A stretch of DNA of 64,000 nucleotides from Parcubacteria group bacterium. Lineage in GTDB: Bacteria; Patescibacteriota; Minisyncoccia; Phycocordibacterales; Zambryskibacteraceae. Below are positions 25,341-61,729 of the stretch, piece by piece. Both the position numbers and the translations under genes were made by a program. Location of the stretch: assembly GCA_028286565.1 (NCBI GenBank), contig JAQBRH010000004.1:217567-281566 (forward strand). Reading direction: 5' to 3'. Positions within the stretch are counted from its first letter, which is position 1. Each line of letters begins with the position of its first letter. A model generated the notes under the pieces. It searched no databases. It had not been told where the DNA came from and saw only the letters and a list, made by a program, of their open reading frames with translations.

Positions 25341-25412
25341 GTTCCCGTAGTTCAATGGATAGAACAGAGCTCTTCTAAGGCTTTAATGTAGGTTCGATTC
25401 CTACCGGGAACA
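25341..25412 (+). tRNA. tRNA-Arg (anticodon TCT)
   Basis: 72 nt: acceptor GTTCCCG/CGGGAAC, D-stem GTTC/GAAC, anticodon stem GAGCU/GGCUU with loop CUUCUAA, T-arm GTAGGTTCGATTCCTAC. Confidence 0.85.
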
Positions 25413-25424
25413 CAAACAAAAATC

Positions 25425-25450
25425 CTCCGCTTCGGGCGGAGTGGTTTTGT
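25425..25450 (+). terminator. Rho-independent terminator after tRNA-Arg
   Basis: CTCCGCTTCGGGCGGAG followed by TGGTTTTGTTTG. Confidence 0.65.
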
Positions 25451-25545
25451 TTGTGTAGAGGAATCGAACGAGGAGGGGTCGGGAGGAGAGACTCCTCCCG
25501 TGGAGGAAGGATTGGGAAAACCGAGGGTTTCCCAGGGGTGAGATA

Positions 25546-25560
25546 TCCTACCGGGAACAC
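25546..25560 (+). repeat. Direct repeat of the tRNA-Arg(TCT) 3' end (TCCTACCGGGAACAC), an att-like footprint
   Basis: It is identical to 25399-25413. The intervening ~130 bp contain the terminator hairpin, an inverted T-arm-like GGAATCGAAC and the palindrome GGGAGGAGAGACTCCTCCC. Confidence 0.6.
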
Positions 25561-25657
25561 CGTTATCAACAACTCTTGCCGAACGTCAAATTGCGTGGTT
25601 ATTTTCATTGTATAATTATGGGGTCGAACTATTAAAATTAAAGGCTAAATATTCATT

Positions 25658-26035
25658 ATGGGAAAGACATCAGCTTCTGTGTTCGGATGGGTGCTCGTCG
25701 TTGTAGGCGTTTTGGGATTTATCCCTAACCCGATCGTCGGATCTGGCGGCATCTTTGTCACCGATCTGCTTCATAACCTCGTGCACATTATCTCAGGTGC
25801 GATCTTCCTCTGGGCGGCATACAGCGCTCCGATGAAAGCGGGCGCGGTTATGAAGACCTTCGGAGTCATTTACCTCCTCCTCGCAGTTCTCGGATTCTTC
25901 TCTTCAGGAGACATGCTCCTCGGTCTCATTTCCTCGAATATGGCGGATACGTATCTTCATCTGGTGCTCGGTATTGTCTTCGTTCTCGCGGGCGTCAAGG
26001 CCGGCAAGGCCATGGCTCCTCAGCCAATGATGTAA
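25658..26035 (+). CDS. DUF4383-family small integral membrane protein
   Basis: 125 aa with 4 TM helices and a WVLVVVGVLGFIPNP...LLHNLVHIISG pattern. Confidence 0.65.
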   Translation: MGKTSASVFGWVLVVVGVLGFIPNPIVGSGGIFVTDLLHNLVHIISGAIFLWAAYSAPMKAGAVMKTFGVIYLLLAVLGFFSSGDMLLGLISSNMADTYLHLVLGIVFVLAGVKAGKAMAPQPMM

Positions 26036-26096
26036 TCTCCTCGGACACCCTGCGGGTTTCCGACGCTTCGCTGCCTTCCGGCAAATCCGGTGCAAA

Positions 26097-26129
26097 ACAA
26101 AAACCACCCTGTTGGGTGGTTTTTGTTTT
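26097..26129. terminator. Bidirectional rho-independent terminator
   Basis: AAAACCACCCTGTTGGGTGGTTTTTGTTTT. Confidence 0.7.
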
Positions 26130-26131
26130 AG

Positions 26132-26213
26132 TGAGCACGGAGGGATTTGAACCCTCAAGCCTTGCGGCATACGGTTCTGAACCGTACGCGTATACCGATT
26201 CCGCCACGTGCTC
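26132..26213 (-). tRNA. tRNA-Leu (anticodon CAG)
   Basis: 82-nt type II tRNA: acceptor GAGCACG/CGTGCTC, anticodon stem UACGG/CCGUA with loop UUCAGAA, a 13-nt variable arm, and T-arm GAGGGTTCAAATCCCTC. Confidence 0.8.
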
Positions 26214-26252
26214 GTACCAAGAGAATACATTATATGCTAGTATCCTTCCAAC

Positions 26253-26325
26253 GGGCGATTAGCTCAGTTGGTAGAGCAACTCATTTACACTGAGAAGGTC
26301 ACAGGTTCGAGTCCTGTATCGCCCA
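26253..26325 (+). tRNA. tRNA-Val (anticodon TAC)
   Basis: Acceptor GGGCGAT/ATCGCCC, D-arm GCTCAGTTGGTAGAGC, anticodon loop UUUACAC, T-arm ACAGGTTCGAGTCCTGT. Confidence 0.8.
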
Positions 26326-26332
26326 CACTCAT

Positions 26333-27103
26333 ATGGATCTCACGCCTTTTATCATTTATGAAGACGAAGATATTCTCTGCTTGAACAAGCCGGCGGGTAT
26401 TGTCGTGCACGGAGACGGCCGGACAAAGGAGCCTTCGGTATCCGAATGGCTGGTGGAAAAATACCCGGAAGCCAAGGGAGTGGGAGAGATGATCCGGCTT
26501 GAAGCCGGGCTCAACGCGGACGGCTCCATGGCCGAAGGGAAGATCCTCGATCGTTCGGGCGTGGTACACCGCTTGGACCGCGAGACCTCGGGGGCGCTCC
26601 TCTTGGCCAAGACCCAAAAAGGTTTCGAACACCTTAAATCCCAATTCTTGGAGCGCACCATCCAAAAAAGTTATTTTGCCTTTGTGTATGGCAGCGTGAA
26701 GGAAGATCACGGCACTCTCTCGATGCCCATAGGCAAGAGCCCGGTAGATTTTCGCAGGTATTCGGCGAGCCGAGGCGCGTTCGGTGATATGAGGGATGCG
26801 GTCACTCATTTTCAAGTGATGAAGCGGGCCGAAGGAGTAACTCTCCTCGAGGCTCGCCCGAAGACCGGACGCACTCACCAGATCCGCGTCCATTTTCAGG
26901 CTCTCCAGCGCCCGGTCGTCTGCGACTCTCTCTACGCGGCTTCCAAGCCCTGCCTCCTCGGATTCAAGCGTTTGGCCCTCCACGCCCGCAAGGTCACCTT
27001 CAGTAACCTCGACGGTGAGCCGACGACGGTGGTCGCCGACTTTCCGGAGGACTTTTTACATGCTTTTGAGGAGATAGGCTATGTGCCAAAGGAGTTGTCA
27101 TAG
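26333..27103 (+). CDS. RluA-family pseudouridine synthase (RluD/RluC-like)
   Basis: Catalytic motif HRLDRETSG and a GRTHQIRVH motif. 256 aa. Confidence 0.85.
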   Translation: MDLTPFIIYEDEDILCLNKPAGIVVHGDGRTKEPSVSEWLVEKYPEAKGVGEMIRLEAGLNADGSMAEGKILDRSGVVHRLDRETSGALLLAKTQKGFEHLKSQFLERTIQKSYFAFVYGSVKEDHGTLSMPIGKSPVDFRRYSASRGAFGDMRDAVTHFQVMKRAEGVTLLEARPKTGRTHQIRVHFQALQRPVVCDSLYAASKPCLLGFKRLALHARKVTFSNLDGEPTTVVADFPEDFLHAFEEIGYVPKELS

Positions 27104-27135
27104 GGACGGGGTTGTGTTAGATTATTCGGACATTT

Positions 27136-27543
27136 ATGAATACAGTGCATTCACCGGTGAAGGTAGACGAACGAAAGAAACTCGACTTTAGGTCGGGGGA
27201 CACCGTTCGCGTCTGGCAAAAGATCCAGGAAAAGGGCAAAACCCGACTCCAGGCCTTCGAAGGACTCGTCCTCGCCCGAAAGCACGGCCAGGAAGCCGGA
27301 GCCACCTTCACCGTTCGCCGCGTCGCCTCAGGCGTCGGTGTCGAGAGGATCTATCCGCTCTTTTCCCCGATGATCGACAAGATCGAAGTGGTCAAGCGCT
27401 CATCCGTCCGCCGCTCCAAGCTCTATCACATCCGTGATAAGGCAGCCAAGGATATCCGCCGCCAGATGCGAAACACTCGTATGGCAAAGGATCCAGAAGT
27501 TGGGGCCGAGCCGGCGGTCGAAACAGAAGAAGCCAAAGCATAA
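27136..27543 (+). CDS. rplS: 50S ribosomal protein L19
   Basis: [33 protein letters not shown]...[11 protein letters not shown] is the canonical L19 sequence. Confidence 0.9.
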
Positions 27544-27565
27544 TCGCCCCTCGGGCGATTTGTTG
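27543..27565 (+). terminator. Rho-independent terminator of rplS
   Basis: ATCGCCCCTCGGGCGAT followed by TTGTTG. Confidence 0.6.
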
Positions 27566-27599
27566 AAATACGGGGTTTAATTTGGTACTCTTCACTCAC

Positions 27600-27681
27600 G
27601 CTCGGGTGGCGAAATTGGTAGACGCACTACCTTGAGGTGGTAGCGCCGAGAGGCGTGCTGGTTCAAATCCAGTCCCGAGCA
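27600..27681 (+). tRNA. tRNA-Leu (anticodon GAG)
   Basis: 82-nt type II tRNA: acceptor GCTCGGG/CCCGAGC, anticodon stem CUACC/GGUAG with loop UUGAGGU, a long variable arm, and T-arm GCTGGTTCAAATCCAGT. Confidence 0.8.
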
Positions 27682-27776
27682 CACTTCGACTCACTTCGTT
27701 CGCTCAGTGTAAACACTGGGCGAATTAGGTATGAGGAGAAGTACCCTGAGCTTGTCGAAGGGCATATAATTAATCC

Positions 27777-28031
27777 ATGGGTTGGTATGTATATATTGCC
27801 AAAGCAAGGACCGGACACTATTACGTCGGAATAACTACAGATCCAGATTCTAGAATAATTAAGCATAATTCTGGGCAGGGTTCTCAGATGGCAAAACAGC
27901 AAGGCCCATTCGAATTGATGTATCGATCAAAAGATTTGGGTAGTAAATCTGTGGCGCGCAAGAGGGAAGTTCAAATAAAAAAGTGGACTAAGGAAAAGAA
28001 AGATAGATTAATAAATGGTGAATGGGCCTAA
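27777..28031 (+). CDS. GIY-YIG nuclease family protein (YhbQ/UPF0213-like)
   Basis: WYVYIAKARTGHYYVGITTDPDSRIIKHNSG is a GIY-YIG core. 84 aa. TATAAT lies 8 nt upstream of the ATG. Confidence 0.7.
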   Translation: MGWYVYIAKARTGHYYVGITTDPDSRIIKHNSGQGSQMAKQQGPFELMYRSKDLGSKSVARKREVQIKKWTKEKKDRLINGEWA

Positions 28032-28061
28032 TTTGTGTTAAAAAGATATGGTTTCTCTAAT

Positions 28062-28134
28062 GGTGGCTATGGTGTAACGGTTAACACTCGAGCTTGTGGA
28101 GCTTGCAATCAGGGTTCGATTCCCTGTAGCCACC
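28062..28134 (+). tRNA. tRNA-His (anticodon GTG, with extra 5' G-1)
   Basis: G-1 + acceptor GTGGCTA/TAGCCAC, anticodon stem CGAGC/GCUUG with loop UUGUGGA, T-arm CAGGGTTCGATTCCCTG. Confidence 0.85.
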
Positions 28135-29721
28135 CCTAATGTTTCTTATTCTAATAGTGTCCCTAAAGGATTTATTCTTTTGGGCAAACATCCTTTCATG
28201 AGGGACGGGTTTGTGCTTGTTGCTGAAGCATATGGTCCCTGAGGCCACCAAAGCCTCAATTACAGGGCTTGGAACTGCCGTGACGAGTTTCCGGTTAGCC
28301 ACCTCAAAACGTTCCCAGAATAGGCTTATGTAGATCCTCTTAAGCTCTGGTGGAGCCTCCTGGTAGGACTGACCTATATTCTTGGCAAGGTGAACTATCT
28401 GCTGGATTGTGTCCACTTTGATGTTCCTGCTTTTCTCAAGTTTTATCAGCTCCTCGTCGCAAGTGTAGATTGCTTCTCGCTGCTTAAGTTTGATCCGAGT
28501 GAAGTCGCTATCATCTAGAATGCCGGAGACAAGTTTTTCTTCCGCCACAGCAAGCTTCTGTTCCGCACTAGACTTAACAGCAAGAATCTTTCTTTTCTCT
28601 CGGATAACATCTCGCTTTTTTAGATCATATATAAACTGCACACGGGTAAGTAGCTTTTCAATAAATTCTGGCGAGAATTCAATGCCCGTGAATAGCTCCT
28701 CAACAGCTATCTCAATATCAGCTGCTCTGACGCTGCGATCCTCATCAGAGATGATTCCAGGCTTTTGTTTACTTGTAAGATATGGACGGTAATAGGTCTT
28801 GTCTTTCTTCGGATGAGTTTCTCCTATAAAGCGGAGTCCGCTTACTGAGGAGAATATATATCCCCGCAAGAGGAAGTCGTATTTTCTTCTTCTGCAGGCG
28901 TGGTGATTATGGTCATCGCAGACCTCTTGGCAACGATCAAAGATGTCTTTGGTCGTGAGTGGGGGATGTTTGCCGATTTGCTCCATCTCCCTCCAACGCA
29001 TAATGCCGTAATAGAATGGATTGCGGATAAGTCGTAGTAGATTCGCAACGCTGAGCATCCCGCCAGTTCTCGACACAAGTCCTTTCTTCTTGAGTTCCTC
29101 ACCAAGCTCGAGCATGGAGTAAGAACCGGTTGAATATCTTTGAAAGAGTTCGGTTATAAGAGAACCCTTCATTTCATCCAGAATAATTATTCTCTTGTCT
29201 GGGTTGTCTGGTGCTCCGGCATTGAGATATCCGACAGGAACTTTGGTAACCCACCAGCCATCTCTGAACCTCTGCTCCATACTTTTAATAGTTTTCCTTG
29301 AGGTAATCTGTGACTGGTACTGGTTAATCAACGCTATAACGCCATCTTGCACTTCGCCCTCAATTGATTCATCAAGGCCAGGTTGATTTACCGAAATAAG
29401 CTTTACCCCTTTCCGTTTCAGAAGTGCTTTGATTGAAAGATGATCAAGCATATTTCTCGCAAGTCTATCGGTGTCGAGAACGTATACTGCACCAACCCTT
29501 TCATCTTCTTGAACACGTACAAGCAGTTCTTGTAGTGCGGGTCTGTTGGTATTCCTCGCTGTTTTTCCTAGGTCTTTGTAGACTCCATCCTCAGCCAACT
29601 CATATTCCGTACTGGCTAAGATTGCCTTCTTTGAGAGATCAAGCTGCGTCTGGATAGAGTATCGACCCTCACCGGCCTGTTCCTCAGTAGAAACTCTGCA
29701 GTAGATAAGGGCCTTTTCCAT
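28081..29721 (-). CDS. Large serine recombinase (site-specific integrase)
   Basis: N-terminal resolvase domain ALIYCRVSTEEQ (catalytic Ser), a recombinase domain and a Cys-rich zinc ribbon (CDDHNHHACRRRKYD). 546 aa. The last ~18 codons are antisense to tRNA-His, so the true stop is uncertain. Confidence 0.85.
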   Translation of the reverse strand: MEKALIYCRVSTEEQAGEGRYSIQTQLDLSKKAILASTEYELAEDGVYKDLGKTARNTNRPALQELLVRVQEDERVGAVYVLDTDRLARNMLDHLSIKALLKRKGVKLISVNQPGLDESIEGEVQDGVIALINQYQSQITSRKTIKSMEQRFRDGWWVTKVPVGYLNAGAPDNPDKRIIILDEMKGSLITELFQRYSTGSYSMLELGEELKKKGLVSRTGGMLSVANLLRLIRNPFYYGIMRWREMEQIGKHPPLTTKDIFDRCQEVCDDHNHHACRRRKYDFLLRGYIFSSVSGLRFIGETHPKKDKTYYRPYLTSKQKPGIISDEDRSVRAADIEIAVEELFTGIEFSPEFIEKLLTRVQFIYDLKKRDVIREKRKILAVKSSAEQKLAVAEEKLVSGILDDSDFTRIKLKQREAIYTCDEELIKLEKSRNIKVDTIQQIVHLAKNIGQSYQEAPPELKRIYISLFWERFEVANRKLVTAVPSPVIEALVASGTICFSNKHKPVPHERMFAQKNKSFRDTIRIRNIRGGYRESNPDCKLHKLEC

Positions 29722-29722
29722 A

Positions 29723-29989
29723 TTAGGTTCTTAGTTTTCTCAGTGAATCGATACGCACCTGGTCTGCTTCTAGGAAGGGGACTACTCGTCGATTTTTAAT
29801 CGCTGTGAGTTGATCAATCAGAACATTAATCTCGTTTGCCGATGAGGTCTTATTCTCTATAGCTTTATCCGCTCTTTCTCGAACAAGTTTGGCGTTCTTC
29901 TTTGCTCTTGGAAGTGTAAGTAGAAGCATCAGGAATCCGATTGACACAAACAGGCCCACCACGAGGAATATGAAGATGATTATTAGCAT
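29723..29989 (-). CDS. Small membrane-anchored coiled-coil protein, hypothetical (coupled to integrase start)
   Basis: TM helix MLIIIFIFLVVGLFVSIGFLMLLL, then a charged helical tail. Its stop abuts the integrase ATG. Confidence 0.4.
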   Translation of the reverse strand: MLIIIFIFLVVGLFVSIGFLMLLLTLPRAKKNAKLVRERADKAIENKTSSANEINVLIDQLTAIKNRRVVPFLEADQVRIDSLRKLRT

Positions 29990-30252
29990 GAAGGGAGTAA
30001 CAAGCGGTTAATCCCTTGGTGAGATACAAAAAGCCCACCACGGGTAGAGCCCGAAGGCTCTCGTACCAGTTTCCCGATACGGCAGGTCATGCGACCCCAT
30101 GATGGGTTCTTTGAGCACGACCTGACTTTGAACCATGCCTTTGGATTGCTCCAAAGGGTTAGGTTCCCAACTGTTCCCAGCTGTAAGTTAATTATGCCTA
30201 ATTTCATGGTTTTTGCTATAAGTGATCATTCCGCCCATATATGTCTTTAAAT

Positions 30253-30301
30253 TGCCGATGACTGCCGATAAGAGTCCTAAAACTAGCAATGACTAGCAAT
30301 G
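30253..30301. promoter_or_regulatory. Cluster of short tandem direct repeats (TGCCGATGAC-TGCCGATAAG; ACTAGCAATG-ACTAGCAATG), a candidate operator between the RHH gene and the integrase operon
   Basis: Seen directly at 30253-30272 and 30282-30301; both sets share the ATGACT core. Confidence 0.45.
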
Positions 30302-30312
30302 AGGGAGTCTGG

Positions 30313-30513
30313 CTACATGATTTCTGGTAATGATTCGTCCTGGTACTGCTCTATAATTTTTCGGTGCTTTTCTTGGTTAAATAGCTCTTCTAGTGCCTCG
30401 CTCACTATCTCGCTCATGGTCTTATTAAGATAAGTGGTGGCGATCTTACATAGGCGATGAGCTTTTTTGCTTACCCTTATTTGCCTTACGTAGCTAACTT
30501 GTCGATTTGTCAT
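30313..30513 (-). CDS. Ribbon-helix-helix (CopG/Arc-like) DNA-binding protein, putative regulator
   Basis: RQIRVSKKAHRLCKIATTYLNKTMSEIVSEALEELF is a beta-strand-helix-helix pattern. 66 aa. Confidence 0.5.
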   Translation of the reverse strand: MTNRQVSYVRQIRVSKKAHRLCKIATTYLNKTMSEIVSEALEELFNQEKHRKIIEQYQDESLPEIM

Positions 30514-30737
30514 TTTCTTATGCTTTTGGCTTCTATCTCCCTCATAGCTTTTAAGAGAGGCTATTAATTATTTGGCGGACAGAATGCTACTGTTTCCAAC
30601 CAGTCAAGGTTCTCCTAGGTCCTTGAATTTTTGTCTGGCGAAACGATCACATGTGTTCTTCCTGATGTGCAGGTGAGGTCCCCCGTTGAGAAGCCATTAC
30701 TCAGAGCGGGGACTTGCATCCGCACACCAACAAGTTT

Positions 30738-30911
30738 TCAGCCCAAGTTTTTCAAGAGATGTGCTGACAGCTCTTTCTGCTCACTATGGTTAATCGAAGT
30801 CTTTTCTATCTGAAGAAGAAATAGTTCTGCCAACTGATCAATGAAAAGGTTCTCAGATTTCTCTGTTTTTTCTTTTCTATTGGTCTTTTTAATGGCTTGA
30901 TACTTTTTCAT
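30738..30911 (-). CDS. Small hypothetical protein (uncertain)
   Basis: 58-67 aa helical ORF between the RHH and Zn-ribbon genes. No recognisable domain. Confidence 0.25.
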   Translation of the reverse strand: MKKYQAIKKTNRKEKTEKSENLFIDQLAELFLLQIEKTSINHSEQKELSAHLLKNLG

Positions 30912-31028
30912 ACAACAAAAAAGACCCAGCCAGGAAACCAAACAGGGGTGTTTAGTTACTTGGCTGGGTCCTCTAAGTTCTTGCGAACTTCTATATAACC
31001 CGCACTTCAGCTATGAATGTTCTACGAC

Positions 31029-31280
31029 TTAAATGCTATTCTCTATCTCGCTCTCTGTCAAATCTGCTGTAAACACCCCCTCATTGGGACCAAAGCGGAT
31101 CACCTTCATGCCACCCTCAGTATCTTTTCTAGGTGGATAAACAATAGATATCGTGTGGCATTTCGTGCATCTTATTTTTCTGATATTTTTCTCTCCAAGG
31201 TGTGAGTCGCCCATATAGTGTGCACAGTTCGTGCAGATAATTCTCTTGACCCCGTCTTTATTAAAAGTTTTCTGTTTCAT
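31029..31280 (-). CDS. Zinc-ribbon protein (CxxC-x17-CxxC), hypothetical; immediately downstream of the KAP NTPase
   Basis: CTNCAHYMGDSHLGEKNIRKIRCTKCH. 83 aa. Confidence 0.5.
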   Translation of the reverse strand: MKQKTFNKDGVKRIICTNCAHYMGDSHLGEKNIRKIRCTKCHTISIVYPPRKDTEGGMKVIRFGPNEGVFTADLTESEIENSI

Positions 31281-31305
31281 AAATTGATTATAAATTAATC
31301 AGTAT

Positions 31306-33576
31306 CTAGTACATAGGGTCATTTCTTTTTGGAAAATCTTTCTTGAAGAGTGATATTGCATCTTTTTGATTGTCGGGCAGTTTATCTAATTTCACTTTAT
31401 CTATTGTGGTTTTGATGTAATCGAGATCAAAAAATTCTTTGAGTGATGAAAATGATATTCTCGGTATTTGTTCAGTAATCATGCCAGATGATCTGAGAGA
31501 TATTGTTTTAAACTTTGATACAAACTCAGCCAAAGCAAGTCTGCTCTTTTTATAAGTATTAACAAAAGTCCTCATATCTTTTTCACCACCCCATTCCTTC
31601 CATCTATATAAAATGTAGACAAGGTTTTCTTGTTTTTTTAGAGATCCGTCTTTATATGCTTTATTTATTTTCTTAAGACCTTCCTTCGATAGCTCTGTTA
31701 TTTCTAGATTATCAAATAATTTTTCTCGGCCGGAAGATTCTTTTTCAGGTCTGGGGAAGTACGAGGAAATAAGGTGGATAGCCCCATATAAGGATTTAGT
31801 TTTTCGGATAGCTTCTCTGCTCGGTTCAAATATGGAAATTTCCCTATCTTTCAATGATTTTAGATAGAAATGGATTACCCTCATAAGATCTGTCTCGGCT
31901 CCGAAATCAAACATCTGATGGGACTTTATACCTGACACCTCATCTGCAATATCCAATAGAACAGTTAAGGTCTGAGCGATCTTATTTCCCTCGGTAGGGA
32001 ATTCTTTTACGTGATCTAGGATCGTAGTGAGAAACTTCCTGATGTCTTTCTTCTTGTCTTGAGTTTTGAGATAGCCGTGCAGCAGAGCAGAAAATTGTTT
32101 GTAGTCTCTAACTTTTTCTAGTGCTGAAGTAATCTCAGACGACCGCATCTCACCCTCAGGGACATTCAAGAAGAAGTAGGTATCAAAATGATCAGCTGAA
32201 CAAATCCTTCTATTCTGCCGCCACTCTTGTTCAATGGTATCGCCCATTGAGTAGTTCTCGAGCACCGATTTAAGGGGAGGGAAGAGTTCGACAAGAAAAT
32301 CTTTAATAAATGGATCAACTTTAACTAACTCAATTCCAATATTTTTCCTTATTTCATCAAGCCTTTTTGATTGATAGTCTCTATGATGGTTTAGCGTAGT
32401 GAACTCCTCTTTATTGTTAGATATGTAATTGTATAAATCAGGATAGAAGTGTTCGAGGGTTCTTATTCCGAGAAAATCAACAGGATCCACCTCGCTTGAT
32501 ATTAAGCTTGCCGCCATCGTCATTTGGCTCAGTGGCCTCTTGATTATTCTGAGATTCCCTCTTTTAAGAAAAGCTTTACCTAAGCCAGAATGATATAGTG
32601 TTGCCCATCTATTTTTATCCCATTTGCTTTCGGAGAAAAACTTTATCAGTTCGTCTAATTGAGCGAATAAGAATTCAGACAATTTTTTGTCATCAGCTTT
32701 TGGAAGCGAGATGGGAATTTGCACAATTTTCTCAATATATTCCATTCCCTCAATACCGTCCTTACTTATCATTTTTCCTACGGTGCCTACGTCCATAACC
32801 ATAAGATATATAAGATTTGGAAGATCTAAATTGATTTTTACTAGTTGGAATAGATTTCTTACCTCCTCCGGCGTGAGACGATCTATATCATCTATAATGA
32901 ACAGAATTTTGCGATCTCTTTTAGATAAAGTCTCTCTAATATCATTCTTTAGTTGGTTAAGCGTTTTCTCTGTTAAAGAAGATTTTTTCTTATAGAAATC
33001 CTCAGCCATAGATACAAGCCCTTCGATAAAGGTAAGAGATTCTAAAATTAAAATAAGAATTATTGTTCCTACGTAGGCGATAGGGCTAAATGCAAAAATT
33101 TTATCTAGTATCACAACTCCCGTAAGCCCAAGAATTGGGAGCCATAGCCTGATAATAGGAAGAAAAGCTTTGTCTTTGATTTTAGTTATTGTTCCTAAAT
33201 ACAATTTTACAAGACCAAGCTGCCTAGCTATTTCCTTGTCTATTTCATTATTTTTCTGTCCCAGCTCTTTACCAACCTCTAATAGAAAATTCTGGACCAA
33301 GTCTCCTTGGTTGGAGAATATCCAAGGGTTAAACTCTATAATTGTTGGGATCTTGTCCTGATCGATATCCTCCTCAAATTTATCAGGGTGATTATAAAAA
33401 TCTTTAATGAAATTGACGACAGAGGTCTTTCCATCACCCCATTTTGCATATAAACCAATTACAAGACTGTCGGAGTCCTTCCAAGATAGGATGTCTTTTG
33501 CGATACGCTTAGCAAAGCCTTTTCGGCCAAGGAGGTCTTCCTCAACTGTCTCTACCGCTTTATCAGAAAAAGCCAT
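31306..33576 (-). CDS. KAP-family P-loop NTPase (membrane-inserted NTPase domain)
   Basis: Walker A GLYAKWGDGKTSV, two TM helices inserted after the P-loop (LPIIRLWLPILGLTGVVIL / IAYVGTIILILILESL), Walker B ILFIIDDIDRL, and a long helical C-terminus. 756 aa. Confidence 0.8.
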   Translation of the reverse strand: MAFSDKAVETVEEDLLGRKGFAKRIAKDILSWKDSDSLVIGLYAKWGDGKTSVVNFIKDFYNHPDKFEEDIDQDKIPTIIEFNPWIFSNQGDLVQNFLLEVGKELGQKNNEIDKEIARQLGLVKLYLGTITKIKDKAFLPIIRLWLPILGLTGVVILDKIFAFSPIAYVGTIILILILESLTFIEGLVSMAEDFYKKKSSLTEKTLNQLKNDIRETLSKRDRKILFIIDDIDRLTPEEVRNLFQLVKINLDLPNLIYLMVMDVGTVGKMISKDGIEGMEYIEKIVQIPISLPKADDKKLSEFLFAQLDELIKFFSESKWDKNRWATLYHSGLGKAFLKRGNLRIIKRPLSQMTMAASLISSEVDPVDFLGIRTLEHFYPDLYNYISNNKEEFTTLNHHRDYQSKRLDEIRKNIGIELVKVDPFIKDFLVELFPPLKSVLENYSMGDTIEQEWRQNRRICSADHFDTYFFLNVPEGEMRSSEITSALEKVRDYKQFSALLHGYLKTQDKKKDIRKFLTTILDHVKEFPTEGNKIAQTLTVLLDIADEVSGIKSHQMFDFGAETDLMRVIHFYLKSLKDREISIFEPSREAIRKTKSLYGAIHLISSYFPRPEKESSGREKLFDNLEITELSKEGLKKINKAYKDGSLKKQENLVYILYRWKEWGGEKDMRTFVNTYKKSRLALAEFVSKFKTISLRSSGMITEQIPRISFSSLKEFFDLDYIKTTIDKVKLDKLPDNQKDAISLFKKDFPKRNDPMY

Positions 33577-50003: not shown

Positions 50004-50549
50004 ATGACAAAACAAAAGCTTTCCGAAGGACGAAATTGGTATGTGATCCACACCTATGCGGGATATGAGAACGCCGTTCAGCGAAACCTCAAGCAGCGCA
50101 TCGAATCACTCGGCATGGAAGACAAGATCTTTCAGGTCATCGTCCCTACAGAGAAGAAGATCAAGATCAAAGGAGGCAAGCGCGTCGAAGAGGAAGAAAA
50201 GATCTACCCGGGTTATATCCTCGTGGACATGATCGTCACCGATGACTCGTGGTACGTGGTTCGAAACACTCCTCGCGTGACCGGCTTCGTCGGATCGGGA
50301 GTCTACCCCGTGCCTATAGACCAAAAGGAGGTCGAGTCGCTCTTCTCCAGAATGAACGCGGACAAGGTCATGCACCAGATCAACCTGTCGCCGGACGACG
50401 CGGTTCAGATCGTCGACGGTCCGTTCAAGGATCTCGAAGGCAAGGTCAACGAAGTCGACGAGGAGCGAGGCAAGGTCAAAGTCCTCGTTTCCATGTTCGG
50501 ACGCGAAACTCCGGTCGAGCTCGACTTCTTGCAAGTGAAGAAGATGTAA
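50004..50549 (+). CDS. nusG: Transcription termination/antitermination protein NusG
   Basis: NGN domain (WYVIHTYAGYENAV) and a KOW domain (VDGPFKDLEGKV). Confidence 0.9.
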   Translation: MTKQKLSEGRNWYVIHTYAGYENAVQRNLKQRIESLGMEDKIFQVIVPTEKKIKIKGGKRVEEEEKIYPGYILVDMIVTDDSWYVVRNTPRVTGFVGSGVYPVPIDQKEVESLFSRMNADKVMHQINLSPDDAVQIVDGPFKDLEGKVNEVDEERGKVKVLVSMFGRETPVELDFLQVKKM

Positions 50550-50569: not shown

Positions 50570-50992
50570 ATGGCAAAGAAAGTAACAAAAGTACTCAAAC
50601 TCCAGATCCCGGGCGGCAAGGCCGTCCCAGGACAAGCGCTCGGCCCGGTCCTCGGAGGAGCGGGTATTCAGATCGGAGAATTCGTCAAGCGATTTAACGA
50701 TGAGACCAAGGACCGCGTCGGAGACATCGTCCCCGTCGTCGTCGAGGTGTACGAAGATCGTACCTACAACATGACCTACAAGACCGAGCCAGCGGCGAAC
50801 CTTATCTTGAAGGCCCTCGGCAAGGAGAAGGGTTCAGGCAAGCCGAATACCGCAAAGATCGGAGTGCTCTCGAAAGCTCAGATCCGAGAGATCGCCGAGA
50901 AGAAGATGTCAGACCTCAACGCAGGGGACATCGACGGAGCGGTCAAGATCATTTCCGGTACCGCTCGAAGCATGGGGGTGGATATTAAATAA
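50570..50992 (+). CDS. rplK: 50S ribosomal protein L11
   Basis: MAKKVTKVLKLQIPGGKA...PPVGPALG-like pattern. 140 aa. Confidence 0.9.
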   Translation: MAKKVTKVLKLQIPGGKAVPGQALGPVLGGAGIQIGEFVKRFNDETKDRVGDIVPVVVEVYEDRTYNMTYKTEPAANLILKALGKEKGSGKPNTAKIGVLSKAQIREIAEKKMSDLNAGDIDGAVKIISGTARSMGVDIK

Positions 50993-51048: not shown

Positions 51049-51158
51049 ACGGGCATGTTATTGTTGAGCCCGGCCTAAATTGTCCTTTGTTGTACTGCTC
51101 GTGCGAGCAGGCTGTACCCCCGGCCACTAGGTCCGGGACCACTCTTCTGGAGATCCAC

Positions 51159-51830
51159 ATGTTTCGACGACTCACTGCAGTTCTCGTTCTTGCTTTCATG
51201 GCTGCTCTGGCAGGTCCGCTCCAGGCTCAGGTGCCCTACGGCACGAACTGCACGCTGCCCGCGAACTCCTTCGGAGGTTCCGGCATCCCGACGAACAACG
51301 TCATGTGCAGCGTGTTGAACGGCGTCCAGCTCGGTATGTCGTCGACAGGAAGCTACACCAGCCCCGCTACGACCACGGACGGTCTCGGCACGTACTACTC
51401 GACCCCGGGCAACCGGACCGGAGCGCCACCGGCGACAACCGTGAACTTCGCCAAGTGGAACTTCAACTGGTTCGTCGGGGGCGCATCCGCGAATGACTTC
51501 TTCTCGCTCGCCATGGACTTGAATTCGGGCCCCTCGTTCACGCCGCAACTCGTGCAGACGTGGTACGGCAACTTCTTCGATTCGTCGAACATGGGCTACC
51601 TCGGCGCGTTGTTCAACAACAACAATCTCGGGCAGTACTCGTTCGAGCTCACCCAGTGGTCCGACGCGAACATGACGACCGAGCTCCAGCATGTCGGCAT
51701 CAACGTCGAAGTGAACGCGGACGGCCAGCCGCCCGTTACCGCCACACCCGAACCCGCCTCGCTGGGACTCCTCGCGACCGGGCTCATCGGCATCGTCGGC
51801 ATCGTTCGCCGGCGCAAGCAGACCACCTGA
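51159..51830 (+). CDS. PEP-CTERM-anchored secreted protein (exosortase substrate motif)
   Basis: N-terminal signal peptide (MFRRLTAVLVLAFMAALAGPLQA); C-terminal PEP + TM + basic tail (TPEPASLGLLATGLIGIVGIVRRRKQTT). It lies in a GC-rich patch. Confidence 0.7.
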   Translation: MFRRLTAVLVLAFMAALAGPLQAQVPYGTNCTLPANSFGGSGIPTNNVMCSVLNGVQLGMSSTGSYTSPATTTDGLGTYYSTPGNRTGAPPATTVNFAKWNFNWFVGGASANDFFSLAMDLNSGPSFTPQLVQTWYGNFFDSSNMGYLGALFNNNNLGQYSFELTQWSDANMTTELQHVGINVEVNADGQPPVTATPEPASLGLLATGLIGIVGIVRRRKQTT

Positions 51831-51937
51831 CCTTCGGGTCTCACCGCTAATCCCTCCCGGGGTTAGCGGCTTTTCTTTTGTCTGAATATGTGTAGAGTAG
51901 GGGGCAGATATCGATCCTCTCAACAGGAAGGAATGCT

Positions 51938-52258
51938 ATGTTTTATGCGATCGTTACCCTGCCGTTCGAAGACAGACCCGGAACTCCCACGAAGGATATT
52001 CGGTTCGTGATGGGGGAGCCGTTGAAAGCTCTCAAGATCGTTCGGGCGATTCAGCGACTCGACACTCAGCGTGTGATCAGCCAGATCATGGTTTTCTCTC
52101 TGGATCCTGAAATGGCCTACAATCTCGCTCATTTGGGTGCATTCAGACTTGCTGCCGACGGCCCAACGATGGAACATGCTTCGTGGCACAGGGACGAGGG
52201 ATGGAACGAGGTTTTCTACGTAGGGCATTTCAAGGCAGTAGAGGGTGTTCCGGCCTAA
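51938..52258 (+). CDS. Hypothetical protein
   Basis: 106-aa ORF with good coding character and no domain recognised. Confidence 0.35.
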   Translation: MFYAIVTLPFEDRPGTPTKDIRFVMGEPLKALKIVRAIQRLDTQRVISQIMVFSLDPEMAYNLAHLGAFRLAADGPTMEHASWHRDEGWNEVFYVGHFKAVEGVPA

Positions 52259-52349
52259 CCGCCGGATTTTTCTTTGACTTCTTTTTGTCCAGGGGTAGAC
52301 TACGCCTAGACCCTTTGTGCTCGTTCCTTATACTAACCCTGAGGCCCGT

Positions 52350-53393
52350 ATGCAAGACGCTCGCAGCCACACCTCCGCCAAGGTCATCGCAGAGAGTGTG
52401 TACAGAGGAAGCAGACTCACCACATTCGAGATCGTGTTTCCGCGGATCATTCTCGCGGAATTCAACACGCATCGCTTGCTGAGTCGTAACTCGGCAAGCT
52501 CCCGAGCCTACCCCACATGGAAGGGTTTGGTGAAAGTGGTGGAATACCCGTTTGTTCCATCTCAGTTTGGAAAGAACAAGGCGGGCATGCAATCGACCGA
52601 GGATGTTTCGGAAGGAGATCTCAACGCAGCCAGGCAGAACTGGCTTGTCGGTCGAGATGTCGCGGTTATCCAGGCCTTCTATCTTGCAGGCGGATACGAC
52701 GAGATCATGAGGAACGCCAAAGGCGACCAGCAGGCTGAAGATGCGTGCAGACGCATCGATGAACTGGCCCGCGAGTATCCTGATGTTGTCCGCAAGATGA
52801 AAGCGTTGTCGGTCGGTGTGCACAAGCAGCATGCCAACCGCGTGCTTGAGCCATACGCTTGGCATACTGTGGTTGCCACAGGCGCCCATTGGCGAAATTT
52901 CTACGGACTGCGTGCCTCTAAGGAGGCACAGCCCGAGATCCGCGAAGCCGCTATCGCCATGATCGATGCTCATTTGCAGAGCGTTCCCCGCGAACTTGAT
53001 TGTGGAGAATGGCATCTGCCCTTTATCACTTCCGAAGATCGGGAAGAGGTCAAGGAATGGGAGCCATTGGCGCGCGTGTCGAGCGCCCGCTGCGGTCGCA
53101 CGAGCACTCTTACCCACGACGGCCATCGGAGTATCTCTGAAGACCTCACCATGGCTGACAGACTGCAGGGCCCGGGACATATGTCTCCGTTCGAACATCC
53201 CGCTCGTGCTCCTGAAAAAGGAATTCACTGGAAGTGGAGCAAAGGAGGTAACTTCGGTCGACCCTGGACGCAGTATCGGAAGATGCTGCAGGGGGAACAT
53301 GATTTTTCGAGGCTGGCATCCCCTGAGGATCTTTTGTTGGGAGTAGGAGGAGATCAGAAGAGGCTGGATTTTATCCTTTCTCTCAATGAATGA
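52350..53393 (+). CDS. ThyX-like (flavin-dependent thymidylate synthase family) protein, divergent, with a ~110-aa C-terminal extension
   Basis: ThyX signature region reads NTHRLLSRNSASSRAYP, where the family has RHRxxSxxxxSxRY; the later block ANRVLEP...HWRNFYGLRASKEAQPEIREAA resembles the ThyX ARxVLP...RSLxHFxxLRxxxxAQxEIR block. An alternative GTG start lies at 52317. Confidence 0.6.
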   Translation: MQDARSHTSAKVIAESVYRGSRLTTFEIVFPRIILAEFNTHRLLSRNSASSRAYPTWKGLVKVVEYPFVPSQFGKNKAGMQSTEDVSEGDLNAARQNWLVGRDVAVIQAFYLAGGYDEIMRNAKGDQQAEDACRRIDELAREYPDVVRKMKALSVGVHKQHANRVLEPYAWHTVVATGAHWRNFYGLRASKEAQPEIREAAIAMIDAHLQSVPRELDCGEWHLPFITSEDREEVKEWEPLARVSSARCGRTSTLTHDGHRSISEDLTMADRLQGPGHMSPFEHPARAPEKGIHWKWSKGGNFGRPWTQYRKMLQGEHDFSRLASPEDLLLGVGGDQKRLDFILSLNE

Positions 53394-53519
53394 TCTATAG
53401 CGAGGACCCATGTCCTCGTTTTTTATATAAAATAACTCGTATTTAAAACCGTTAAGTCAACTTGTTTAGTTTTTATATGAGCTTAAGCTAGGCAAAGATA
53501 CTCAATCGAGAGGTTCTTT

Positions 53520-54143
53520 ATGAATGAATTCGGCAAGTTCATTGTGGTGTGTGGGACGGAAGGATCAGGCAAGACCACGGCAGTCAAACGGCTCATGAGT
53601 AGTGACCTTAAAGACTCTTTCGTGGATTCAAGAGAACCGGGAGGTTCTAAGGGTGGTGAAGATATTCGCAAATTCATTTTCGCGAATCCCGATCTTCATA
53701 CCGAAGCCCGTTTCCATCTTTTCTGGGCTGCACGCAAGGATCATTGGAACACTTTGATCTTGCCTGCATTGAAGAGCGGAAAGCATGTGATTTGCGATCG
53801 ATTCGATTGCTGCACCTATGCCTTTCAGTGCTACGGAGAGGAGCATGTCCACCTGCAGAACATCTTCAGGACAATTAGGGAAGATATGTTTCCTAGCTGG
53901 AAAGTAGAGTGGAGGCCGCAGTATATCCACTTCGACTTACCTCCGCTCGTCGGCCTCGGACGAAAGATCGCCGACGGAGATCGCAACTTCTTCGACGACG
54001 AACAGCTCGCTTTTCATGAGAGAGTACGGCGTGGGTACGAAGAATTTGGCAAATTGTTCCCAGTGAAGCGTCTCAATGCTGACCAGGATCCTGAGATGGT
54101 CTGGCGTGATTTCCGCACAAATGTTGAAAAGATCTTGGTGTGA
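53520..54143 (+). CDS. tmk: Thymidylate kinase
   Basis: P-loop VVCGTEGSGKTT, the REPGG motif, and DRFDCCTYAFQ (DRY-like). Confidence 0.85.
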   Translation: MNEFGKFIVVCGTEGSGKTTAVKRLMSSDLKDSFVDSREPGGSKGGEDIRKFIFANPDLHTEARFHLFWAARKDHWNTLILPALKSGKHVICDRFDCCTYAFQCYGEEHVHLQNIFRTIREDMFPSWKVEWRPQYIHFDLPPLVGLGRKIADGDRNFFDDEQLAFHERVRRGYEEFGKLFPVKRLNADQDPEMVWRDFRTNVEKILV

Positions 54144-59809: not shown

Positions 59810-61729
59810 ATGGAAGACGAGAGGAGCAATATAAATAAATTGAACGAGTCGCTGTATTCGCGCACCCGCTATCAGGCCCCGGATGACCGCCGTACTCCGC
59901 TTGTTGCAAGCGAGGCGCCGGACGTAAGCGAATCCTTCGACTCCAAATCGATCGACGACATGATAAAAGAAGACCGCCGCAGGAACGAGAACCATCCGAT
60001 CATGGCAAAGATGTTCACCTTTGCTCTTATTTTCTGCTTGGCCGCCGCCGCGGTCGCGGGCTATATCTATCTCGCCGGAGGGAACCTCATTTCTTCGAAG
60101 AATGTGGAGATCTCGGTCCTCGGACCCGTGTCCGTGGCTGCCGGAGCTCCGCTCGAGCTTGGGGTGACCATTTCGAACAAGAATAACGCCGATCTCGCCA
60201 CCGTGAACATGGTGGTCGAATATCCGGAAGGCACCCGCTCCGCCGAAGACTCGACGAAGACCCTGGCTCGAGACAAAGTGGCGGTCGGAGCTATCGCCGC
60301 GGGTGCTTCGGCTACCCGCACCGAGCGGGCCATCCTCTTCGGCCAAAAAGGGGACATTAAAACCGTCATCATTAACCTTGAATACAGGGTCCAAGGATCG
60401 AACGCTATTTTCTCCAAACAAAAGTCGTATGACATTTCCATCGGCTCCGCGCCGGTCACCATGACGGTGGATGAGCCTCCGACGGTTACTTCCGGTAATA
60501 CATTTCAAACCAAGATCACCATTCTCGCTAACTCAAGCGAGATTTTGAAAGATGTGCTGATCCGCGGCGAATATCCGTACGGGTATTCCGTCTCAAGCGC
60601 CGTGCCGAATCCCTCTGCCGGAGACAATATCTGGTCGCTCGGCGACCTCCAGCCCGGAGAGAAGCGAGAGATCGTCATTAAAGGAATTCTTCTCGGTGAG
60701 AATCAAGAGGAGCGAACTTTTAGGTTTTATGCGGGAGTAGGGAAGACCGGAGATCCGAACAAATTCGAAAGCACTCTTTCTCTTTCTACCCAAACGGTCC
60801 AGATCAGCCGCTCATCGCTCAGCCTGGCCGTCAGCTTGAACGGAGAAAATACGTCCTCGTACATCGCTCCGGCGGGCAATGTTATCCAAGGGGCGGTTTC
60901 GTATAAAAATAATCTCCCGACGAACGCCTCGAATGGCCGTATCCAGGTGACGCTTTCGGGGGCGGCGCTTGATAAGTTTTCTATTCAAGCGGACAAGGGC
61001 GGATTTTATAATTCGAGCAACAATACAATAGAATGGAATCCTTCGAACTACCCCGAGCTTGCCACCTTGTCTCCCGGCGAATCGGGGCAGGTTAGCTTCG
61101 CCTTCTCATCCCTCGCCGTCCTTCCTCCCGGAGCGAAGAACAACGAGATGTCCCTGAACACGAGACTCACAGCCGATCCATCAAGCGGGGATACTCAAAG
61201 CATCCTCACGGCTTCCGCCACGAACTCGGTCAAGGTCGCTTCAGAAGTGACGCTGTCGGCCAAGGCTCTTTACTCGCGCGGACCGTTCAAGAACACGGGC
61301 CCTATCCCCCCAAAAGCCGAGAAGCCGACGACCTACACGCTTGTGCTCGACCTCGGGAACACTCAAAACGATGTAACCGGCGCCGTGGTCACGGGCAAGC
61401 TCGGACCGAACGTCACCTGGACGGATAAAACGAGCGTCACCGGAGGACAGATCTCGTACGATCCCGCGGCGAATGTTTTAACATGGGTCGTGGATAAACT
61501 TCCCTCGGGTGCCGGGTTCTCAGGCAAGGCGCTCGAAGCGGTGTTCCAGGTATCCTTGAATCCGTCGATCGGCCAGGTCGGCTCTTCACCGATCCTTGTT
61601 TCCGGACTCTCCTTCAGCGGGACAGACTCGTTCACGAACTCCAAGGTGAGCTTTGCTCTGCCTGCGGTCACTACCCGCATCACTTCCGACCCCGCCTATG
61701 TCCAAGGGGACGACCTGGTTGTTAAATAG
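59810..61729 (+). CDS. Large membrane-anchored surface protein with repeated beta-rich (Ig-like) domains, hypothetical
   Basis: Cytoplasmic N-terminus, a TM helix (FTFALIFCLAAAAVAGYIYLAG), then ~540 aa of Ser/Thr/Gly/Asn-rich extracellular repeats. 639 aa. Confidence 0.55.
   Translation: MEDERSNINKLNESLYSRTRYQAPDDRRTPLVASEAPDVSESFDSKSIDDMIKEDRRRNENHPIMAKMFTFALIFCLAAAAVAGYIYLAGGNLISSKNVEISVLGPVSVAAGAPLELGVTISNKNNADLATVNMVVEYPEGTRSAEDSTKTLARDKVAVGAIAAGASATRTERAILFGQKGDIKTVIINLEYRVQGSNAIFSKQKSYDISIGSAPVTMTVDEPPTVTSGNTFQTKITILANSSEILKDVLIRGEYPYGYSVSSAVPNPSAGDNIWSLGDLQPGEKREIVIKGILLGENQEERTFRFYAGVGKTGDPNKFESTLSLSTQTVQISRSSLSLAVSLNGENTSSYIAPAGNVIQGAVSYKNNLPTNASNGRIQVTLSGAALDKFSIQADKGGFYNSSNNTIEWNPSNYPELATLSPGESGQVSFAFSSLAVLPPGAKNNEMSLNTRLTADPSSGDTQSILTASATNSVKVASEVTLSAKALYSRGPFKNTGPIPPKAEKPTTYTLVLDLGNTQNDVTGAVVTGKLGPNVTWTDKTSVTGGQISYDPAANVLTWVVDKLPSGAGFSGKALEAVFQVSLNPSIGQVGSSPILVSGLSFSGTDSFTNSKVSFALPAVTTRITSDPAYVQGDDLVVK

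Follow-up and report, generated by a model that had tools for sequence, protein, structure and literature searches.

A thyX-like gene beside tmk in a Parcubacteria group bacterium: a putative thymidylate synthase of a permuted ThyX subfamily

Flavin-dependent thymidylate synthase (ThyX, also called FDTS) is essential and a target for antibacterials, and it serves as a model of methyl transfer by flavins; what is known of its mechanism comes from a small number of colinear enzymes. In the canonical order, a beta-hairpin is followed by the helices alpha1-alpha2 with a GHxxxxEH block, then by a strand and the RHR motif, and finally by the C-terminal helices. The canonical family (Pfam PF02511, NCBIfam TIGR02170) includes TM0449 of T. 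maritima, Rv2754c of M. tuberculosis, the H. pylori enzyme and A674R of PBCV-1. Here we describe a thyX-like gene located at 52350..53393 (+) in a stretch of 64,000 nucleotides of contig JAQBRH010000004.1 from a Parcubacteria group bacterium; the whole stretch is referred to below as the window. The gene encodes a protein of 347 aa and ends in a TGA stop codon. Its product is a ThyX-family protein with a permuted domain order. It is probably a working flavin-dependent thymidylate synthase and belongs to a subfamily in which the permutation is accompanied by changes in the active site.

The roles of individual residues in the canonical enzymes have been reviewed (PMC6514825), and we took residue roles from that review. 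In the M. tuberculosis enzyme, R87, S105, R107, R172 and R199 are the conserved residues that bind deoxyuridine monophosphate (dUMP). The first Arg of the RHR motif forms hydrogen bonds with the isoalloxazine ring and dUMP, the lid Tyr (M. tuberculosis Y108) shields dUMP C5/flavin N5, and T. maritima R165, equivalent to M. tuberculosis R190, contacts the phosphate of flavin adenine dinucleotide (FAD) (PMC6514825). The window protein shares with the canonical enzymes the xHRxxSxxxxSxR register, the equivalents of the five M. tuberculosis dUMP-binding residues, the GH-x-S loop and the kind of pathway genes found nearby. It differs from them in that its GHxSPxEH hairpin comes after the core, Thr stands in for the first Arg of RHR and Ala for the lid Tyr, and the R165/R190 Arg has no equivalent; in addition, it is about 100 residues longer and has a further C-terminal module (residues 284-316) and a P..P..G.N..GMQ loop, both conserved.

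Phage proteins of PHROG_85, annotated by homology only as 'ThyX-like' or 'putative thymidylate synthase' (N4 gp30, ICP1 gp193, phi92 gp078, Pakpunavirus C11_123), have the same permuted architecture and carry the same invariant residues. The phage literature treats such genes, by homology, as thyX auxiliary metabolic genes, often accompanied by dCMP deaminase (PMC11934525, PMC8265664). In contrast to these, the window protein is the product of a chromosomal, syntenic gene of a Parcubacteria bacterium; the phage proteins are without its helical insert (residues about 113-150) and its tail (residues 317-347), and some of them have a long loop before GNF. PolB, the UMP/dUMP C5-methylase of polyoxin biosynthesis (PDB 4p5a), has the ThyX fold too and gave a comparable structural score, but this match does not imply the permutation or the motif changes. 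The classical thymidylate synthase, ThyA, would have the same net product, deoxythymidine monophosphate (dTMP), whereas its fold is unrelated and no sequence similarity to it was seen anywhere in the window.

Both its fold and its Pfam match place the window protein in the ThyX superfamily, in agreement with the homology proposed in the initial annotation. It matched Thy1 (PF02511) with 44.8 bits, above the gathering threshold of 24.8, the match covering profile positions 60-190 only. Of the canonical ThyX features that we tested, three were not found: a score above the equivalog cutoff, the strict motif and colinearity. The phage family PHROG_85 "thymidylate synthase" matched far better (E 1.5e-53), and over residues 33-328, including what had been supposed to be a C-terminal extension. 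A word-indexed protein database contained more than 5,000 homologous proteins; the best 120 were 50-66% identical over 97-100% of the length, almost all of them were 340-355 aa long, and their source names, where given, were all Parcubacteria/Paceibacterota. The similarity to the permuted subfamily is full-length and takes in the C-terminal blocks GHxSPxEH and GN[FY]..W.Q.R. Judged by sequence, the window protein genuinely belongs to this subfamily, which PHROGs lump into phrog_85. It is 100% identical to the NCBI protein JWN89_663 (Parcubacteria group bacterium, contig of 308 kb), which is named "hypothetical protein"; the NCBI name of some other members is "FAD-dependent thymidylate synthase".

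According to the alignments described below, the ThyX domain is non-colinear, the helical hairpin being encoded after the core and not before the motif. The order is strand and motif, then helices, then alpha1-alpha2 with GHMSPFEH. Since the strand that leads into the motif has no more than 21 residues before it, the canonical alpha1-alpha2 cannot be accommodated there. The initial annotation had found the HASF/EH region 'not evident' and had described about 110 extra residues, rich in His, Trp and Gly, after the ThyX core. Because the domain is permuted, the missing GHxSxxEH block and the extension are one: the block is present as G276-H-M-S-P-F-E-H283 inside the supposed extension, in which residues 239-283 correspond to the relocated core segment and residues 284-316 are conserved family-wide. 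The compositional claim held only weakly, with Gly at 10.9% against 5.5%, His at 5.5% against 3.4% and Trp at 2.7% against 2.5% in residues 238-347 and the rest of the protein, respectively.

Two alignments were used for the comparisons with T. maritima TM0449, the sequence of which was verified against PDB 1kq4: a family alignment (A1) and a broad alignment (A2) of 15 sequences from Patescibacteria, Solirubrobacterales and four phages. By hhalign, A1 was aligned to TM0449 with query residues 243-283 on TM 21-59 (E 1.7e-5, or 2.7e-6 for the C-terminal part alone), residues 130-213 on TM 116-199 (E 2e-5), and residues 25-52, without gaps, on TM 63-90, the last being weak alone (E 0.13). When a hidden Markov model (HMM) of A2 was compared with all PDB sequences by HMMER, the T. 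maritima ThyX chain was matched in three stretches, 32-73, 74-102 and 130-212, which are consecutive on the chain and map to family-profile positions 227-270, 20-48 and 122-199, respectively. The stretch for chain 74-102 is weak alone, at 0.4-0.5 bits, but it directly abuts the stretch 32-73, and the junction 73/74 of the chain is the exact point of the family's "cut". The two methods thus agree on the non-colinear order. By tblastn, moreover, TM0449 residues 21-61 matched the C-terminal third of the homolog L043 with 46.5% identity (E 1.65e-5).

The order was further probed by placing residues 239-283 before residue 22 in silico in four family proteins and scoring the products against Pfam Thy1, the controls being the reversed segment at the same place and the correct segment at a wrong place. 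For the window protein, the native score of 44.8 bits rose to 61.3 after re-ordering, compared with 40.3 for the reversed and 42.1 for the misplaced segment. The corresponding four values, in the same sequence, were 54.1, 68.1, 42.9 and 49.3 bits for P0004; 32.8, 49.1, 24.5 and 32.3 for P0066; and 41.0, 56.3, 32.2 and 39.6 for P0040. Re-ordering therefore raised the score in all four proteins, by about 13-16 bits, and neither control gained. Coverage of the profile, 60-190 before, was extended to 12-15...190 in the three homologs and to 34-190 in the window protein. The TIGR02170 score of the re-ordered window protein increased from 52.5 to 70.2 bits, with one matching stretch running across the artificial junction. 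The C-terminal fragment of the window protein alone gave no Pfam or NCBIfam match, and that of one homolog gave a weak Thy1 match at positions 15-61 (E 0.057).

Constructs with a strict circular permutation scored almost like those with the hairpin transposed alone (60.3 versus 61.3, 67.0 versus 68.1, 48.0 versus 49.1 and 54.4 versus 56.3 bits), and neither kind reached Thy1 profile positions 1-11. The counterpart of the canonical first hairpin may thus be the N-terminal strand (residues 9-18) or, under a strict circular permutation, the segment 212-226, which would then be the former N-terminal strand. The relocation is likely to have arisen by tandem duplication or fusion, followed by loss of the redundant parts.

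In the gene, the segments are laid out as follows. The N-terminal beta-hairpin (residues 9-31), a helix and the ThyX motif are encoded at 52374..52508 (+); in the AlphaFold2 (AF2) model, strands at 9-18 and 21-31 and a helix at 32-39 leave no room for alpha1-alpha2 between the strands. The core helical and strand region, with HKQxANR (R164) and NFxxLR (N183, R188), is encoded at 52737..52988 (+). The relocated alpha1-alpha2 hairpin, residues 239-283 ending in the GHMSPFEH block, lies at 53064..53198 (+) and is equivalent to T. maritima 21-59 including His53, the residue studied in the H53A and H53D structures with FAD, dUMP and folate. It is followed at 53199..53297 (+) by the family-specific C-terminal module, residues 284-316, which consists of a variable loop and then GNF..W.QYRK..E. 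This module is conserved in Patescibacteria, Solirubrobacterales and phage members, with G300, N301 and R310 invariant; it has no counterpart in canonical ThyX, and its predicted local distance difference test score (pLDDT) is about 50-57. The last segment, at 53298..53390 (+), encodes a lineage-specific helical tail (residues 317-347; AF2 helices 325-331 and 336-344, pLDDT 75-87) that is found in Paceibacteria-like relatives only and is absent from the Saccharibacteria, Solirubrobacterales and phage members in A2.

The ThyX signature THRLLSRNSASSR is encoded at 52467..52505 (+) and corresponds to RHRxxSxxxxSxR with the first R replaced by T; Ala53 comes next. In translation the residues are T40-H41-R42-L-L-S45-R-N-S-A-S50-S-R52-A53-Y54. 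The motif THRLLSRNSASSRA aligns with RHRxxSxxxxSxR position by position and keeps both Ser and the last Arg, but the strict motif is not matched. The Arg to Thr change is thus real and not a matter of mis-registration, and the T-H-R reading of the initial annotation was correct; the 'Y' it included in the signature is not a displaced lid Tyr, since the lid position is Ala53, which is Ala in every member, and Tyr54 is Ile in most relatives. T40, H41, R46, N47, S50, S51, R52 and A53 are invariant from Paceibacteria to phages, so that the replacement of the first RHR Arg by Thr40 is found in every member and the His of RHR, H41, in every member as well. S45 (T. maritima S83) hardly varies, being kept in at least 90% of A2, and R42, at the third motif position, is R, T or C within Paceibacteria, Thr or Cys in many.

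Residues were mapped by the hhalign and HMMER alignments together with fixed motif offsets. The dUMP-binding set R32, S50, R52, R164 and R188 is invariant in both A1 and A2. R32 is equivalent to M. tuberculosis R87 and is shared from Paceibacteria to phages; S50 and R52 are equivalent to M. tuberculosis S105 and R107 (T. maritima S88 and R90); R164 is equivalent to T. maritima R147 by the HMMER alignment, with hhalign one residue off; and N183, L187 and R188, all invariant, are equivalent to T. maritima N169, L173 and R174. In the relocated segment, H277, S279 and H283, also invariant, are equivalent to T. maritima H53, T55 and H59 (M. tuberculosis H69 and S71 for the first two). The position of T. 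maritima R165/M. tuberculosis R190 is Ala179 here and is not conserved in the family. The family-wide invariants without a canonical counterpart are R46, P67/P70, G74-N76-G79-M80-Q81, W98, H158-K159-Q160, W221-H222-P224, C248, G300-N301 and R310, and we infer that R46, K159, Q160, N76, Q81, W221/H222 and R310 may compensate for the lost contacts.

The long family members (454-866 aa; P0176, P0186, P0239, P0257, and also P0202, P0228 and P0270) were considered as possibly informative fusions, but they turned out not to be fusions; most of them carry inteins, some with HNH homing endonucleases and helix-turn-helix domains. In the four sequences that were read (P0176, P0186, P0239 and P0257), the intein interrupts the ThyX motif itself, with "EFNTHRxF" before it and "SRNSASSRA" after it, and its +1 residue is the Ser45 equivalent. 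Inteins typically lodge in indispensable catalytic sites, and their presence in the motif therefore fits an active, selected enzyme.

The subfamily is large. A profile search with A1 against 1.84 billion cluster representatives (clusters at 50% identity) gave 5,565 clusters at E<=1e-3 and 3,593 at E<=1e-30; the matched representatives are typically 270-350 aa long, and the matches reach profile position about 316-322. The permuted arrangement is common to at least 3,593 protein clusters, from Patescibacteria, Solirubrobacterales and phages such as N4 and ICP1. With two family-specific peptide patterns, 424 stretches encoding a relative were found among 185,579 species genomes, the hosts being Paceibacteria, Saccharibacteria (including the complete genome CP011211.1) and many Solirubrobacterales/Actinomycetota with chromosomes of 2.5-2.9 Mb. 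Homologs were also present in 1,034 phage records, at 28-40% identity over 80-97% of the query, including N4 gp30, G7C, ICP1 gp193, phi92 gp078, Pakpunaviruses, and Campylobacter and Caulobacter phages.

The gene next downstream is tmk (53520..54143, +), encoding dTMP kinase, the next step of the pathway (Pfam PF02223, 82 bits; TIGR00041, 93.5 bits against a cutoff of 83.25). This adjacency had been noted in the initial annotation, and the position fits a role in dTMP synthesis. The order of genes in the window is nusG (50004-50549), rplK (50570-50992), a PEP-CTERM gene (51087-51830), an open reading frame (ORF) of 106 aa (51938-52258), the thyX-like gene, tmk, argS and ileS. In the 21 most similar genome loci, all Paceibacteria-like, tmk was located within 8 kb of the thyX-like gene in 19, rplK and nusG were upstream in 15-16, and argS and ileS were downstream in 16-18; the conserved order is nusG-rplK-thyX-like-tmk-argS-ileS, the thyX-like gene usually coming directly after rplK in syntenic relatives. 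Given this conserved order and a normal GC content (see below), the gene looks like a vertically inherited housekeeping gene.

Near the thyX-like gene in the same 21 loci there are also genes for dCTP deaminase (5 loci), dUTPase (dut, 3), serine hydroxymethyltransferase (SHMT; glyA, 4) and dCMP deaminase (2). L012 and L013 contain an island of the thyX-like gene, tmk, a dCMP deaminase gene, glyA, a deoxynucleoside monophosphate kinase-like gene and tmk; L008 and L014 contain one of the thyX-like gene, tmk, a dCTP deaminase gene and glyA; and in L010, L015 and L007 the thyX-like gene adjoins dut, with dCTP deaminase in L010 and L015 too. The islands for dTTP synthesis were located at 9886-12305 in L008, 4753-8482 in L012, 3641-6836 in L014, 9055-10643 in L010 and 9516-11176 in L015. 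They supply dUMP (by Dcd/Dut or dCMP deaminase) and methylenetetrahydrofolate (CH2-THF, by SHMT) and consume dTMP (by Tmk), and the thyX-like gene is the only candidate in them for the thymidylate synthase step. The dCTP deaminase encoded in such islands is a two-domain protein, and one or two copies of tmk are present.

Outside this group, tmk is nearby in six of ten Saccharibacteria-like loci. In Solirubrobacterales the thyX-like gene has an unrelated, conserved neighbourhood, in which the upstream neighbours are large polytopic membrane proteins that resemble NADH-dehydrogenase subunits by eye. Among the phages, the context includes dCTP deaminase in N4, thymidine kinase, deoxyribonucleotidase and NrdAB in phi92, and ribonucleotide reductase genes in C11 and ICP1.

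Taken as a thymidylate synthase, the window protein would catalyse dUMP + CH2-THF + NAD(P)H -> dTMP + tetrahydrofolate (THF). Most likely it would assemble as ThyX does, into an oligomer, presumably a tetramer, with flavin bound and active sites at the subunit interfaces. The methylene of CH2-THF, delivered by SHMT, would pass via flavin N5 to C5 of dUMP held by R32, S50, R52, R164 and R188; the intermediate would be reduced to dTMP and then phosphorylated by the Tmk of the adjacent gene. In this scheme the chain would provide the His277 loop from its C-terminal side, where canonical ThyX uses the N-terminal side. A bolder and rather doubtful proposal is that the clade is mechanistically re-wired, with flavin binding or orientation and solvent exclusion provided by R46, K159/Q160, W221/H222, R310 and the C-terminal module, perhaps with another use of cofactor or reductant and another inhibitor sensitivity, and that many Patescibacteria, as well as phages of the N4, ICP1 and Pakpunavirus types, may have no thymidylate synthase besides it.

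The initial annotation had left it between a canonical ThyX, a modified-base enzyme and a non-catalytic homolog, and the evidence favours an active thymidylate synthase of a non-canonical subfamily. An enzyme that modifies C5 of pyrimidines in another way, for example a flavin-dependent dUMP/dCMP hydroxymethylase for modified bases, would account for the replacement of the lid Tyr and the first RHR Arg in every member, as without the lid Tyr water could reach the exocyclic methylene intermediate; the abundance of the family in phages points the same way, and some phage lineages do modify thymidine. We nevertheless consider it improbable, because in cellular relatives the gene is grouped with dcd, dut, glyA and tmk and these clusters contain no second thymidylate synthase; in Patescibacteria and Solirubrobacterales it has a chromosomal location and conserved synteny, and in the regions examined no glycosyl-, amino- or kinase-type hypermodification genes lie beside it. 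A recently acquired phage auxiliary gene or prophage remnant, in place of a host housekeeping gene, might be suspected from the PHROG_85 match and from the GC-rich PEP-CTERM gene just upstream. This is very unlikely in view of the full-length Parcubacteria/Paceibacterota homologs, of which the closest 120 are 50-66% identical, compared with 28-40% for phage proteins, and of the nusG-rplK-...-tmk-argS-ileS neighbourhood, which recurs in 15-18 of the 21 related loci; besides, the GC content of the gene is within the range of the window and no phage structural or integrase genes are nearby.

Loss of activity through the motif changes, leaving a ThyX-fold protein with, for instance, a regulatory or nucleotide-binding role, would agree with the failure to reach the thyX equivalog cutoff and with the three lost canonical active-site residues. 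It is still harder to credit than a phage origin, because the substrate-binding residues are invariant across very distant members, within a family of thousands of clusters, and inteins target the motif; the pathway clusters that have no alternative synthase speak against it too. Least probable of all is a methylase of UMP, the ribonucleotide, like PolB: canonical ThyX structures match equally well, and the neighbours in the window are rplK, the PEP-CTERM gene, tmk and argS, with deoxynucleotide enzymes in the related loci and no nucleoside-antibiotic gene cluster.

Several points weigh against our assignment as a functional flavin-dependent thymidylate synthase. Both TIGR02170 scores, native and re-ordered, are below the equivalog cutoff of 87.9 bits. 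With the first RHR Arg and the lid Tyr lost, the chemistry or the use of cofactors could differ. The reach of the GHMSPFEH loop into the active site is a prediction from sequence in a part where the AF2 model is unreliable, the pLDDT being <50 at residues 274-286 and 297-302, around the relocated loop. The PDB contains no solved structure of the subfamily, a sequence search giving only weak hits to canonical ThyX, and in the literature, searched with subscription journals mostly outside its reach, we found homology-based annotations only and nothing on a permuted topology, an altered active site or activity. Whether the protein may be the sole thymidylate synthase was addressed by a search for thyA, folA and canonical thyX confined to the 64-kb window: ThyA, FolA, Dut and GlyA of E. 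coli and ThyX of T. maritima gave no tblastn match at E <0.5 there, a setting at which T. maritima ThyX fails to detect even the thyX-like gene itself, and a Pfam annotation covering part of the window likewise showed no ThyA, FolA or canonical ThyX homolog.

If the assignment is true, a large and widespread branch, in candidate-phyla bacteria, soil Actinomycetota and well-studied phages such as N4 and ICP1, appears to do the job of ThyX with a rearranged chain and without residues that contact the flavin and shield the centre. This would show which active-site features ThyX can do without. A dedicated model in annotation pipelines would also be justified, as the window protein is now called 'hypothetical' and falls below the equivalog cutoff, and the calls on dTMP synthesis would become firmer in metabolic reconstructions of bacteria with reduced genomes.

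The ORF on the + strand that ends at 53393 has two possible starts, GTG at 52317 and ATG at 52350. ATG 52350 is preferred, because homologs begin at the same position, whereas the GTG start would add 11 residues that the homologs do not have; a different start or frame giving a standard ThyX was thus not borne out. The antisense ORF 52230-53411 and the ORF 51075-51923, tried as alternatives, had no Pfam match. A promoter-like site, TTGACT-16-TAGACT, is located at 52274..52301 (+), upstream of the gene; it is a consensus match only, and with 3 such sites in the region against 1.9 expected by chance it is weak evidence. A terminator-like hairpin with a T-run lies at 53399..53420 (+), immediately 3' of the stop codon. 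An Rfam scan of the whole window revealed no RNA elements near the gene.

The GC content of the thyX-like gene is 0.554, which is unremarkable for the window (mean of 1-kb windows 0.507, standard deviation 0.054), and the values for rplK, ileS and tmk are 0.551, 0.534 and 0.492, respectively. The PEP-CTERM gene, at 0.621, is the only outlier, more than 2 standard deviations above the mean. A GC-rich locus, as described at first, is therefore confined to the PEP-CTERM gene, and horizontal transfer of the thyX-like gene, considered on the ground of GC content, was rejected. The PEP-CTERM gene and the 106-aa ORF, the latter without a family match, are each followed by a terminator-like hairpin. 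Together they look like a local insertion in this genome, since the thyX-like gene directly follows rplK in most syntenic relatives.

On the other side of the thyX-like gene, the mechanically called argS ORF starts inside the end of tmk (54076-54143), and an independent call (L085) gives an overlap of about 38 nt; this suggests translational coupling or a later true start of argS. Elsewhere in the window, a full-length LOOT RNA (Rfam RF03000) was found at 30046-30165 (-), scoring 85.5 bits where the gathering score is 46.4. A cluster of tRNA genes (25341-28134) adjoins a large serine recombinase gene (28081-29721, -), the LOOT RNA and a gene for a KAP-family P-loop NTPase (31306-33576, -), and the region 25341-33576 may be an integrated mobile element. 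Two further ORFs, 59810-61729 (+, 639 aa) and 13612-14712 (+, 366 aa), showed no significant Pfam match.

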